Source: Eledone cirrhosa
Lineage: Eukaryota
NCBI GenBank assembly: GCA_964016885.1
Contig: OZ024740.1
Coordinates: forward strand, 496,001 to 560,000
Length of the DNA: 64,000 nucleotides
Reading direction: 5' to 3'
In this document: positions 1,917 to 48,104 of the stretch, piece by piece
Numbering within the stretch: the first letter of the stretch is position 1
Layout of the letters: each line of letters starts with the position of its first letter
Program-made: the position numbers and the translations under genes
Notes under the pieces: model-generated
What the model saw: the letters and a program-made list of their open reading frames with translations, nothing else
Told to the model about the DNA's origin: nothing
Database searches by the model: none

Positions 1917-2071
1917 ATAAATATATATATATATATATATGTAAAGTTATATTTAAAATTGTTGGGTTACAACTAGTAAATATTTATAACTGATATAAAA
2001 GCACTCGACAAATATTTGGAGTATATTTACAATATTAAATAAATGGAAAACTATATTTATAAAACCATATT

Positions 2072-2137
2072 TATTTCATTATATATATTTCGGGGATATC
2101 ATATTAACAATATGCTATGCCTTCATCAGACAAAATA
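2072..2137 (-). ncRNA. Type I hammerhead ribozyme, long-stem-II family (in repeat ~1941-2180)
   Basis: Minus strand TATTTTGT-CTGATGA-AGGCATAGCATATTGTTAATATGATATCCCC-GAAA-TATATA-TA-ATGAAATA: intact core, stems I and II, palindromic stem III. Confidence 0.75.
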
Positions 2138-2224
2138 CAATATAAACAGTTTTATAGATAAATATATTCAACATACCGTAATAAACATCAACTTCATTTG
2201 AAGAGGTTTACGCGATATATATGT

Positions 2225-2600
2225 GAAATAGCGATATATATGTGAAGACAAACATATATATCGCTATTTCAGAGCATTAAATCCAAATTCTAATTTCTGC
2301 CGGACCGGCTACTGCTCTTTCAAACCAGTTCCTGTACACAACTAAGTATTCTATAAGTCTCTAGCTGTGTCGTTCTCAATAAAAGCATTGGATATGTAAT
2401 CCTGATGATTTCTAATAAGAATGAAACGCGTAGATTACTTCCCTTGCTTTTATCGAGAATCTCTAATTGTAATACGTGACGTATTCTATTCTATAGCGAT
2501 TGGGTCTTCAAAATGTTTATTATAAACATACAGAATATTTTCGAATATTCTATGTTTGTCTTCACATATATATCGCTATTTCAGAGCATTAAATCCAAAT
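2225..2600 (+). mobile_element. Retrozyme/Penelope pLTR-like unit (312-bp period) carrying the hammerhead
   Basis: 37-bp direct repeat 2252-2288 = 2564-2600; 32-bp inverted repeat 2225-2256 vs 2551-2582; hammerhead inside. Confidence 0.55.
2396..2438 (+). ncRNA. Minimal type I hammerhead ribozyme
   Basis: GTAATC-CTGATGA-TTTCTAATAAGAAT-GAAA-CGCG-TA-GATTAC: perfect 6-bp stem I, TTCT/AGAA stem II, palindromic CGCG stem III, GUA triplet. Confidence 0.8.
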
Positions 2601-4070
2601 ATATATATATATAAATATATATATATATATATATAAATATATATATATATAAATATAAATATATATATATATATAAATATATATATATATATATATATAT
2701 AAATATATATATATATATAAATATAAATATATATATATAAATATAAATATATATATATAAATATATATATATATAAATATAAATATATATATATATAAAT
2801 ATATATATATATATATATATATAAATATATATATATATATAAATATAAATATATATATATATATATAAATATAAATATATATATATATATATATAAATAT
2901 ATATATATATATATAAATATAAATATATATATATATATATATATAAATATAAATATATATATATATATATATATATAAATATAAATATATATATGTAAAT
3001 ATATATATATATATATATATATATAAATATAAATATATATATATAAATATAAATATATATATATATATAAATATATATATATAAATATAAATATATATAT
3101 ATATATATAAATATAAATATATAAATATAAATATAAATATATATATATATATATATATATAAATATAAATATATATATATAAATATATATATATATAAAT
3201 ATAAATATATATATATAAATATAAATATATATATATAAATATATATATATATATATAAATATATATATATAAATATATATATATATATAAATATATATAT
3301 ATATATATAAATATATATATAAATATATATATATATATATATAAATATAAATATATATATATATATAAATATATATATATAAATATAAATATATAAATAT
3401 AAATATATATATATATATAAATATATATATATAAATATAAATATATATATATATAAATATAAATATATATATATAAATATATATATATATAAATATATAT
3501 ATATAAATATAAATATATATATATAAATATAAATATATATATATAAATATAAATATATATATATAAATATAAATATATATATATAAATATAAATATATAT
3601 ATATATATAAATATAAATATATATATATATAAATATAAATATATATATATAAATATAAATATATATATATAAATATAAATATATATATATAAATATAAAT
3701 ATATATATATATATATAAATATATATATATAAATATATATATATAAATATAAATATATATATAAATATATATATATAAATATATATATATAAATATAAAT
3801 ATATATATATAAATATAAATATATATATAAATATAAATATAAATATATATATAAATATAAATATATATATATATATAAATATATATATATATATAAATAT
3901 ATATATATAAATATATATATATAAATATAAATATAAATATATATATATAAATATAAATATAAATATAAATATATATATATATAAATATATATATAAATAT
4001 AAATATAAATATATATATATATAAATATATATATAAATATAAATATATATATATATATATATATATATTT
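2601..4070. repeat. ~1.5-kb (TA)n/TAAA array
   Basis: Directly visible; source of the spurious poly-IY ORF. Confidence 0.97.
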
Positions 4071-4524
4071 ATATACGATATTAACAAATGGAAACTATAT
4101 TTATAAAACCATATTTATTTCATTATACACCAAGTTAAATTATGGTGTGCTTTCATCAGATAAAATATAATATAGATTAGTTTTATAAATAAATATTGAC
4201 ATACCCTTACAAAATGCAACCATTACTGTTGGAAGCTCCCGGATAGTGGAGGTTAAGCTTAATTATATTATTATTAGTATTGGATATTTTTATTTTTAAA
4301 ATAAGCCGTTGGGTTACGGAGAAAGTGAAAGATAAAGAAGGAGAGAGAGAAAAAAAGAGAGAGAGAGAGGTCAAAACAGCAGAGAGAGAAAGATATATAG
4401 TGAGAGAGGAGACAGAGAGAATGGGAGAGAACAAAAAACTCTAATTCATATCTTGTTGTGTTAACTTAACAATTGGGATGAAATGAATAAATAAAATTAG
4501 AAATGTTAATAATCATGAATGGAA

Positions 4525-5256
4525 TCATCATCATCATCATCATCGTTTAACGTCCATGTTCCACGCTTGCATGGGTTTGGATGGGAGTTTTCCCAATTGA
4601 GGCAAGAGTCGTTGTCTTGCTCACATAGGACTGTCTGGCGGGTTTTCTACAGCTGGATGCCCTTCCTAACACCAACCACATTTACAGTGTGGACTGGGAG
4701 GTTTTTACCGTGTTACCTACACGGCCACATTAAAGCGTGGACTGTGTGTTGTTTTGTCGTGACACCTACACGATCTCATTTGTTTCGGGCTGGATGTTGT
4801 GGCACAAACATAACTTTACATTGAAAGGGGCGGTGTGGATGGGGTGGGGGTGGTAGGACGGGGGTGTATTTTGTTAGAGATGCCTACTGACTGTAGTAGG
4901 TTTTACTTTGTATTTAGGTAAGGCGGGTCTTCTCTATTACTGAGTGCCGCCAAAGATCTCGGTTCAGTGACATTGTCTTGGAGAGGTGTAAGTGTGTGAG
5001 GTCGGAGTTTATCAGGTCGTCCCAGGTTTTTCTGGGTCTGCCTACTCCGTGGCTACCGTCTATCTTTATTGCCCTGCACTTTTTTATACAGCTGTCGTCT
5101 TTCATGCGCATTACGTGACCATACCAACGTAGCCTTCTCTCGAGTAAACAACATCTGATCCCTCTTATTTCTAATTTTTCCCTTAGTTCGTTTATGCTTT
5201 GCCGTTCGCGTATATTACTATTACACATCCAGCGGAGCATGCAAGCTTCGTTCCTC
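4525..5256 (-). mobile_element. RTE-A LINE 3' fragment
   Basis: ORF 4914-5240 MLRWMC...RRLRWYGHVMRM; RTE-A 3'UTR and (CAT)n tail. Confidence 0.9.
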
Positions 5257-46226: not shown

Positions 46227-46504
46227 CAGTATATATATATATATATATACAGTATATATATATATATATATATATATACAGTATATATATATATATATAT
46301 ATATATATATATATATATATATATACAGTATATATATATATATATATATATACAGTATATATATATATATATATATATACAGTATATATATATATATATA
46401 CAGTATATATATATATATATATATATATATATATATATACAGTATATATATATATATATATATATACAGTATATATATATACAGTATATATATACAGTAT
46501 ATAT
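46227..46504. repeat. (TA)n array punctuated by CAG (TACAGTA)
   Basis: Directly visible. Confidence 0.95.
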
Positions 46505-46634
46505 GGAAAGTTATATTTAAATTGTTGGGTTAACAACGAGTAAATATTTATAACTGATATAAAAGCACTCAACAAGTATTTGGAGTATATTTATGATATT
46601 AAATAAATGGAAACTATATTTATAAAACCATATT

Positions 46635-46700
46635 TATTTCATTATATATATTTCAGGGATATCATATTAACAATATGTTATGCCTTCTTCAGACAAAATA
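46635..46700 (-). ncRNA. Type I hammerhead ribozyme, long-stem-II family
   Basis: Minus strand TATTTTGT-CTGAAGA-AGGCATAACATATTGTTAATATGATATCCCT-GAAA-TATATA-TA-ATGAAATA. Confidence 0.78.
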
Positions 46701-47933
46701 CAATATAAACAGTCTTATAAATAAATAGATACGACATACCTTTCAATCGACTTGCATTTGGGAGGTTGATTTGGCAGTAAAAAATATTGTGGACAGTTGT
46801 AAAAAGAAAGAGAGAAAGAAAGAAAGGAAGAAAAACGAAGAAAAAGAAAAAGAAGAAATGCATGTGACTAAATAGAGAGATATAGAAAGATAGATAAAGA
46901 GAAGAACTTCATGTAAAGAAACAGAGAGGGATATATAGAGAGAGGAAAAAAGAAAGAGATATAGATAGAGATAGATAGAGAAACTAGGTAGTTGAGTATC
47001 AATTGATACATTTATTTATTTATTTATTTATTTAGCTCTAGTATTAATGTAAAGAGAGATGTATGTAGTTAAGAGAGAAAATAGACGTTATATAGAGAGA
47101 AAAAAAGAGAAAATGAAAAATAACCAGACATAAACGAGGCAGAATTTAAAAAACGCTATGTATCATCATGTAGAAATATAAAACAGGCATTATAATGTAA
47201 ATATCAGTATTCATGAATGAGACATGTATCTATAATGTGTGAAAAGTAATGATCTTATGTCTAGTTTTTAAAAATTCATGTTTATATCATAATTATAAAC
47301 AAACTCCCAATTCACACGAAAACATTCTCATTGTGCTATAAAAATTCAAGTATACATATATGTGTGTATATATACACATATATATAGAGTCTATATTAAT
47401 TTTAACAATACTATTCTTGTCTTTACTCTACATGATTGTCGATCAAGCAGAAATAGAGAACAGATTTCAATATATTAATAAAAATAAAAATAAAAATAAA
47501 TATAAATAAAAATATCAGAGACAAGAAAATAAATAAATAAACAGAAAACTAAAACATTTAATATTAAAAATAAAAATATTACAAAATATTAAAAAATAAT
47601 AAAAATAAAACATAGTATGCCACGCAAATCGGCCACAAAGATCAGCCTTTCAAAGTTAATTGACAATATATTGCCAAGTTCATCATAAGCATCAGAGTCG
47701 AAACAGATAAAACAAAATTTGTTTAGGATACCCATTTGGTCTACATATGTTCTTATATTTAATATAGAAGTTTATCTAGTGTAAAATTTAATTCGATATA
47801 TATGGAGCATCAGCTTTTAGGGTAGTTTAATTATTTATGAAGAATGTTTTAATAAAAAGAAGAAATCGAAAGATTTATCGGCTAGTTTCATAAATAATTA
47901 CAAATCTATTTATTTATAAGACTGTTTATATTG

Positions 47934-47999
47934 TATTTTGTCTGAAGAAGGCATAACATATTGTTAATATGATATCCCTGAAATATATATAATGAAATA
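47934..47999 (+). ncRNA. Type I hammerhead ribozyme, inverted copy of 46635-46700
   Basis: Same sequence on the plus strand, inside a ~140-bp inverted repeat (46593-46730 vs 47904-48042). Confidence 0.78.
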
Positions 48000-48104
48000 A
48001 ATATGGTTTTATAAATATAGTTTCCATTTATTTAATATCATATACAGTATATATATATATATATATATATATATATATATATATATATATAATTATATAT
48101 ATAT

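Follow-up and report, generated by a model that had tools for sequence, protein, structure and literature searches.

Introduction

Hammerhead ribozymes with a palindromic stem III have already been published for the Hydra clade of Penelope-like elements (PLEs), including Hydra-1_Obim of Octopus bimaculoides, and the stem II of the published Hydra hammerheads reaches up to 7-8 bp (Craig et al. 2021, PMC8557442, File S2). PLE motifs with a long helix II, pairs on opposite strands and weak cleavage as dimers were already reported by Cervera and de la Pena (2014, PMC4209133). In Poseidon_Ac, reverse transcription starts at two internal sites, and in vitro insertion does not depend on the protein-assisted cleavage (Frangieh et al. 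2024, PMC11167929). Statements about these and other cited sources refer throughout to the sections of them covered here. We analysed 64,000 nucleotides of Eledone cirrhosa DNA (assembly GCA_964016885.1, contig OZ024740.1, positions 496,001 to 560,000 of the forward strand), hereafter called the window, which contain seven hammerhead motifs. The original prediction, made from the letters of this stretch, had taken these motifs for one family of ribozymes that work as dimers on the transcripts of a mostly non-coding mobile repeat. Judging from their sequence context, we are confident that they are type I hammerhead folds in the pseudo-long terminal repeats (pLTRs) of four protein-coding Hydra-clade PLE families, here F1 to F4. 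The copies of these elements end directly before one of two conserved hairpins in the 5' leader.

The elements share many traits with the Hydra-clade PLEs of PMC8557442. These include a type I hammerhead in the pLTR, just one open reading frame (ORF) encoding a reverse transcriptase (RT) plus a GIY-YIG endonuclease at the C-terminus, the motifs DKT, CxCx5C, CxxC and CxH, a stem III that is palindromic, (TA)n as target, arms that are inverted and 5'-truncated, and a tail on one side. They differ in having a U15.2-A16.2 pair and an AUA triplet, where File S2 has C-G and GUH. The tail is about 85-90 nt long, compared with 30-40 bp, and there are about 85,000 motifs in the genome. The units span 3.3-4.3 kb (3.3-3.9 kb as measured between hammerheads) and thus exceed the length of generally under 3 kb that the same paper gives as a description of the clade. 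A long 3' untranslated region (UTR) also sets the class apart from the published Hydra-clade elements. The minimal metazoan PLE hammerheads of PMC4209133 have a helix I of 4-5 bp, a bulged base after A9 and a G10.1-C11.1 pair, whereas the motifs described here have an AU-rich helix I of 8 bp, no bulge, mostly A10.1-U11.1 and an internal C.Y mismatch.

As in Poseidon_Ac, where two RT starts downstream of the hammerhead match two genomic ends and uncut RNA is the template (PMC11167929), the genomic copies have two preferred ends. In Poseidon_Ac the starts lie at an AC-rich stem-loop inside the ORF, and the main text covered describes no duplicated signal. Here, in contrast, it is the 5' leader that holds the ends, and each of them precedes one copy of a bulged hairpin that is conserved. 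Metazoan non-long-terminal-repeat (non-LTR) retrozymes likewise have type I hammerheads, a weak helix III and a link to PLEs (PMC7761336; bioRxiv 10.64898/2026.07.22.740005). However, they are short non-coding tandem repeats, while the copies analysed here are non-tandem and derive from coding elements.

The hammerheads add to the described class a variant that is unusually long and AU-rich and has an internal mismatch that is fixed; their tens of thousands of copies form a natural mutation series. We regard the copy ends as the more useful result, as they bear on the poorly understood transposition of PLEs. The hairpin would provide an RNA signal, small and open to mutation, for testing where a telomerase-related RT starts and what purpose the ribozyme serves.

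Parent elements of the hammerhead motifs

A direct check of the window sequence found the seven motifs at the coordinates and strands given in Table 1; they are named here by their predicted starting positions. Six of them have ~140-550 nt of flanking sequence in common. The seventh, 44608, shares no flank with the others and belongs to a separate family (F4), so that the assignment of all seven to one family does not hold. Every window copy terminates in or near (TA)n. The short copies, truncated at the 5' end, often inverted and tailed on one side, agree with what is known of PLE insertions.

The notion of a mostly non-coding repeat also has to be replaced. Autonomous Hydra-clade PLEs with RT-endonuclease ORFs of 700-800 amino acids (aa) are the source of the motifs, which form their pLTR/3' ends and look non-coding because the 3' UTR is 1.3-1.8 kb long and most copies are 5'-truncated. 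In the elements, hammerhead sites lie ~190-215 nt (cut to ATG) before the RT-GIY-YIG ORF of 740-800 aa and again 1.3-1.8 kb after it. The window itself holds a trace of this arrangement, with the 17562 motif located 1.4 kb downstream of an endonuclease fragment (15873-16142) on the same strand. When this fragment alone served as query and 12 of the loci with the longest ORFs were fetched, 9 carried, on the strand of the ORF and 1.5-1.85 kb downstream of it, an intact hammerhead of the class; in one the hammerhead lay upstream only, and two gave no intact call. The same hammerhead flanks the ORF at either end in the full elements L077 (unit of 3,747 bp, 46635/47934 type), L078 (3,676 bp, 35295 type), L149 and L150 (3,940 bp and 3,334 bp, both 44608 type). 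Among loci picked by motif spacing, ORF matches were found in 10 of 11 for F4 and a linked ORF in 8 of 18 for F1-F3; those without an ORF in either group are too truncated.

The elements encode a single ORF of 709-800 aa, in which YRDD near residue 350 and Y-x-G near residues 600-690 indicate an RT followed by a C-terminal GIY-YIG endonuclease. Two of the ORFs, of 742 and 800 aa, are 53% identical. The motifs comprise RW[RT], DKT, YRDD, CxCx5C, CxxC and CxH, the last three of which were located by regular expression. DKT replaces DKG in 3/3 ORFs. The position of RWK reads RWR in F1/F2 and RWT or RWI in F4, with RWK in most aligned homologues. No CCHH motif was seen when the ORF alignment was inspected by eye. 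Since DKT, CxCx5C, CxxC and CxH are among the marks by which PMC8557442 defines the Hydra clade, we assign the ORFs to that clade, a placement by motifs. It has to be set against this assignment that Pfam scans of the ORFs recognised neither an RT nor a GIY-YIG domain. Among named homologues, a hypothetical protein of Argonauta hians ranks best.

The majority of copies are short and lack an ORF, and animal PLE-derived retrozymes exist (bioRxiv 10.64898/2026.07.22.740005). The motifs could thus be imagined to stem from a non-autonomous, non-coding element, such as a non-LTR retrozyme or a repeat akin to a short interspersed nuclear element (SINE), that makes small circular RNAs. We consider this very improbable and largely refuted already. 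None of 179 class copies forms a tandem array with a period of at least 80, same-strand neighbours less than 1 kb apart belong to different subfamilies, and the 3' ends are fixed while the 5' ends vary. Moreover, each window cassette matches a full PLE, from 72-83% (4116) up to 99% (44608, 47934), and the elements have a coding parent. Another candidate parent, a 713-aa Hydra family whose endonuclease lies at 14706-15385, was our first guess and was rejected, as its 3' UTR lacked the motif in 16 loci.

Fold and covariation of the ribozymes

Five of the seven motifs (2072, 17562, 44608, 46635 and 47934) have an intact CUGANGA...GAAA-N6-UA core. The predicted damage to the other two was found as well: ~13 nt comprising GAAA and the greater part of stem III are missing from 4116, while 35295 has GAGA instead of GAAA. 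Cuts predicted after 17618 and 47991 are counted correctly. Some details of the predicted fold need revision. Stem I of 44608 is not shorter than that of the others, as it also comprises 8 bp (44606-44676, including one G.U). Stem II is paired among copies as proposed; it is not continuous, however, and consists of 3 bp, an unpaired C.Y and a further 6-9 bp. The homodimer of the stem III sequence AUAUGUAU contains two symmetrical G.U pairs and not one.

Genome patterns were searched in the 3.0 Gb assembly, each alongside its reversed-pattern control. The general hammerhead pattern matched 85,125 times (81,813 + 3,312), a 22-nt pattern for the first six motifs 31,388 times and a 34-nt pattern for the 44608 type 8,168 times, with 0 matches in every reversed control. 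With 85,125 genome matches against 0 in the control, the motifs are not due to chance.

As the motif finder demanded GAAA and 5 bp of stem I, the conservation of these parts is by construction and only stems II and III provide free evidence. The fold comprises three helices, with stem I open. Stem II covaries, in line with a type I hammerhead fold that has been kept by selection, as the original prediction had proposed. Among 60 distinct variants, 488 of 540 cells of stem II are paired, compared with a shuffle maximum of 419. Its positions 1-3 and 5-7 pair in 345/360 cells, compared with 33-60% in shifted registers (60 variants, 127 copies). In a set of 28 rows, hand-chosen from about 60 variants, 94.7% of cells are paired and two-sided changes occur in 8 of 9 stem II pairs; 0/500 shuffles reach the observed values, and slid registers give 33-57%.

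Position 4 of stem II is an unpaired C in 60/60 variants (C.C 47, C.U 12, C.A 1). C occupies this position in 81,813/85,125 genome matches (96%), where the general pattern left position 4 free (two seed patterns had required C), and the listed exceptions resemble scattered point mutants. In 37 Hydra-like clusters of other hosts, obtained from metagenome contigs, the stem II region spans 10-25 nt, in contrast to 20-36 nt in this class, and position 4 is paired in 37/37. The long stem with its C.Y mismatch thus sets this lineage apart.

Stem III stays self-complementary in 121/127 copies, as had been proposed. Its innermost two bases, which are unable to pair in a hairpin, remain complementary as UA, UG or CG.

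Several points temper the structural argument. Besides the constraints imposed by the finder, the relatedness of the copies inflates the shuffle tests, and the two-sided change in stem III is supplied by the F4 lineage only. The G10.1-C11.1 pair, typical of type I hammerheads though not universal, is mostly missing, with A-U in 47, G-U in 5, G-C in 3 and no pair in 5 of the 60 variants. It could be argued that the motifs are a chance pattern in AT-rich repeats that was inherited by descent without structural selection, given how AT-rich the region is and that an Rfam scan of the window scored none of the seven motifs at E <= 1. We regard this as practically negligible. The reversed-pattern controls are 0, and the pairing of stem II is kept, with several two-sided changes, between lineages whose proteins are 53% identical.

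Some further features of the ribozyme surroundings were observed. The flanks of F1-F3, for example 17540-17550 and 17631-17642, are complementary and could extend stem I past an internal loop. Several more hammerhead families, with a palindromic stem III of 4-7 nt, share these (TA)n tracts at L051, L062, L069, L074, L131, L134, L149 and L159, and the L134 family has a stem II region of 49 nt. A conserved GGTAYGY sequence, which resembles a 5' splice site, lies 25-50 nt upstream of the core (e.g. 17524-17530 on the + strand), and an intron starting there would include the ribozyme. It precedes the core in 79/113 F1-F3 and 9/11 GGAC-type copies and in 0/47 F4, 0/8 GGTC-type and 0/44 other-host copies. 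None of 10 hits was a spliced genomic copy lacking this putative intron.

Copy ends and the twin leader hairpins

Were the ribozyme to generate the template's 3' end, insertions would stop at the cut. Instead, copies read through it, which argues against a simple role in end processing. Among F4 matches, 21,783 read on past the predicted cut, compared with 3 that pass into TA at this point. A set of 62 loci was selected without use of the downstream half; 58 of them continue normally past the cut, three have small indels and one is the 4116 deletion.

The copies end further downstream, in two classes. In short ends the TA run begins 38-58 nt past the cut (89/158 copies), and in long ends 120-151 nt past it (54/158); 4 of the remaining copies read through and 11 end otherwise. 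The 143/158 copies that a TA run terminates at one of these two sites fit insertion into (TA)n. Inverted pairs, such as 46635/47934, combine a short with a long end in 38/41 cases, where about 19 would be expected if the ends were independent. Two reservations apply to these counts: one + arm was counted twice among the 41 pairs, and TA microhomology blurs the end positions.

At the other side of the copies, 5' truncations at the F4 cut site gave 73 hits, with 10 true junctions among 20 inspected, while a control offset by 8 nt gave 19 hits, 13 of them true junctions. This excess of 2-3 fold, relative to one control and with AT microhomology at the site, is too slight to be given weight. Half of the inspected F4 cut-site variants (L271-L290) have lost three bases exactly at the cut. 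Slippage in a short repeat would be the simple reading of this loss, and a ligation scar is a candidate alternative.

Each copy end lies 0-10 nt before one of two motifs in the leader, at +53 to +58 and +143 to +149. The motif is a hairpin (RCUC-Y..R-UN-GAGYRC) with an RCUC/GAGY stem, a 2-nt bulge on the 3' side and a Y-R pair closing a variable loop. In 17 complete leaders from other hosts, two copies of the hairpin are present in 11, one in 4 and none in 2, compared with a background rate of 0.002 per shuffled leader. The closing pair, which was left free in the search, is Watson-Crick in 44/48 instances from other hosts (C-G 28, U-A 15), where shuffling gives a mean of 23.5 and a maximum of 34. 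The first pair is G-C in 50/60 and A-U in 8/60 instances. These pair counts come from scripts and not from the MAFFT alignment, in which the leader hairpins are poorly gapped. The ends of copies in other hosts agree with the hairpin positions where this is testable (L165, L168, L173, L184); several further comparisons were uninformative. We found no description of the twin hairpin in the literature searched, most subscription papers and some supplements being outside its scope.

The hairpins are likely to tell the enzyme of the element where to start copying. They might instead act as DNA, in the form of a signal for endonuclease recognition or resolution within the integration intermediate, and not as RNA bound by the RT, with the tail arising from resolution by the endonuclease. 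PMC8557442 indeed ascribes the tail to endonuclease-mediated resolution, PMC11167929 cites a requirement for the tail in recognition by the Penelope endonuclease, and the four stem pairs of the hairpin are near-invariant in sequence. Yet the closing pair covaries across a variable loop and the one-sided 2-nt bulge is kept, which fits a folded single strand. In addition, the hairpin adjoining each end is missing from the inserted DNA, as expected if the RT starts just 5' of the bound RNA. We thus consider a DNA signal unlikely and prefer an RNA hairpin that would position the RT.

Predicted cleavage and a model for transposition

The hammerheads are predicted to cut only as a pair, formed through stem III between the two same-strand copies of a full pLTR-ORF-pLTR transcript. 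Two such copies per unit are present in L077, L078, L149 and L150, though not among the window copies. In the monomer, the 2-bp hairpin of stem III has a predicted cost of 2-3 kcal/mol. The predicted energies of the 8-mer stem III duplex at 37 C are -3.2 kcal/mol for AUAUAUAU, -2.2 kcal/mol for AUAUGUAU and -10.5 kcal/mol for AUGCGCAU.

The energetics do not all favour cleavage. The A/U duplexes are weak (-2.2 to -3.2 kcal/mol at 37 C), the predicted minimum-energy fold of most copies is not the active one, and the predicted probability of stem I is 0-0.57 in 16 representatives. A weak stem III duplex and a poorly populated stem I fit a weak, assisted ribozyme, as in Poseidon_Ac, and the protein of the element likely helps the predicted cleavage. 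If the ribozyme is active, we somewhat favour that it would trim or circularise the unit-length RNA as a dimer. In contigs of four sequencing runs of unknown kind, which are uninformative on expression, there were no splice joints and no loose ends were listed at the cut. An inhibitory 'anti-ribozyme' hairpin suggested by RNAalifold was rejected: 0/17 of its pairs covary, and z fell below -1.65 in 0/16 comparisons with shuffles.

Cleavage might also proceed in a monomer chaperoned by the protein, or the hammerhead may be dispensable for transposition, with a possible role in transcript termination or translation control; the palindrome would then be a by-product. This deserves serious attention although we rate it as the less probable course. 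In Poseidon_Ac, the protein was required for cleavage, and insertion in vitro by catalytic mutants was normal (PMC11167929). The same-strand partners are separated by 3.3-4.3 kb and the A/U duplex is weak, and the genome contains a young Hydra family whose core reads CAGAAGA and whose non-palindromic stem III could pair as a monomer. On the other hand, the innermost complementarity of stem III survives the change from UA to CG, and in most other families, both here and in other hosts, stem III is palindromic or has a central mismatch. In line with dimerisation, weak dimer-dependent cleavage has been measured for a Schistosoma PLE motif (PMC4209133).

The identity of the elements, the covariation and the positions of the copy ends are observed, and the following model of transposition is built around them. 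The protein of the element would bind the full pLTR-ORF-pLTR transcript at the two leader hairpins, and the endonuclease would nick both strands of a (TA)n tract. The RT would start just 5' of hairpin 1 on one strand and of hairpin 2 on the other. The cDNA would run back through an uncut or re-ligated hammerhead into the 3' UTR, usually stopping early. Joining of the two cDNAs would create inverted arms, tailed on one side. The hammerhead would pair with its twin through stem III and thereby release or circularise unit-length RNA. We put this forward tentatively, at just short of even odds, as a general scheme: a duplicated hairpin found across the clade sets a dimeric, telomerase-like RT at two starts on one RNA, one per nicked strand, which may explain both the inverted arms and the one-sided tail, while the long-stem hammerhead upstream with its C.Y mismatch may circularise or trim the template as a dimer.

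Window copies and other features

The window copies are listed in Table 1. None of them has an intact partner of the same family and strand nearby, and the 46635 and 47934 motifs lie on opposite strands, facing apart. For this reason, RNA-seq ends at the window loci would be a poor test of cleavage. Most likely, the window copies are inert relics.

Table 1. Element copies, arms and motifs identified in the window
Feature	Position	Strand	Remarks
Intact hammerhead, family F1	2072..2137	-	Predicted cut after 2080; cassette 1943-2165 has 93.7% identity to both pLTRs of full-length L077; copy end near 1941 in (TA)n, directly before the place of hairpin 2 (long end)
Leader hairpin 1 (RCTCC..G-UN-GAGYGC), tail of 2072 copy	2001..2022	-	
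Truncated pLTR with core-deleted hammerhead 4116-4167	4080..4525	-	Short end in (TA)n
Partner arm of F2 copy, inverted and 5'-truncated	15385..15871	-	Broken before its hammerhead by another PLE family
C-terminal fragment of Hydra-type GIY-YIG endonuclease, family F2	15873..16145	+	90 aa at 15873-16142; upstream of 17562 hammerhead
3' UTR/pLTR, family F2, with intact hammerhead 17562-17626	16146..17668	+	Predicted cut after 17618; short end in (TA)n; 15873-17668 has 90.7% identity to L130 across 1.8 kb
Inverted tail-only partner arm of 35295 copy	35125..35230	-	Leader hairpin 1 at 35192-35213
F3-family short pLTR arm with hammerhead 35295-35360 (GAGA for GAAA)	35230..35392	+	87.9% to both L078 pLTRs
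Short pLTR arm, family F4, with intact hammerhead 44606-44676	44580..44790	-	Predicted cut after 44614; stem III AUGCGCAU; short end; both L149 pLTRs matched at 99%
Near-complete 3' UTR, family F1, with intact hammerhead 46635-46700	46505..47900	-	Predicted cut after 46643; long end; leader hairpin 1 at 46565-46586; L077:4819-6279 matched at 88.2% over 1.4 kb
Inverted short partner arm with intact hammerhead 47934-47999	47903..48040	+	Predicted cut after 47991; short end; 99.3% to L077 pLTR

The original inventory of the window captured the seven motifs and missed the endonuclease fragment at 15873-16142 together with three further hammerhead-like motifs. The first of these (2396-2438, +) is a short hammerhead of another family with stem III ACGCGU, located in a fold-back cassette at ~2224-2600; Rfam gives a weak HH9 match at 2387-2452 (E 0.6). 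The second (13511-13556, +) is a compact hammerhead of a further family with stem III ACACUGU, followed ~70 nt later by a bulged hairpin of the leader type. The third (13751-13774, -) has CAGAAGA for CUGANGA and a non-palindromic stem III. It lies in the 3' end of an element at ~13715-15385 (-), which belongs to a second, young Hydra family with an open frame of 713 aa and an endonuclease part that is 97-100% alike among copies. The leader of this young family contains two hairpin-like motifs.

The remainder of the window includes decayed fragments that we take to be RTE-like long interspersed nuclear elements (LINEs), at 6792-12013, 17740-20255, 23947-24981, 38110-46510 and 59230-60264, and what is presumably a different LINE ORF at 42919-44487. 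Weak tRNA matches at 20985-21052, 32375-32432, 36712-36769, 57511-57568 and 63065-63121 are probably the heads of a tRNA-derived SINE. Minisatellites occupy 32821-34114 (52 bp), 50988-51419 (42 bp) and 61882-62689 (38 bp), and the 38-bp unit derives from the 3' part of an RTE-like ORF.

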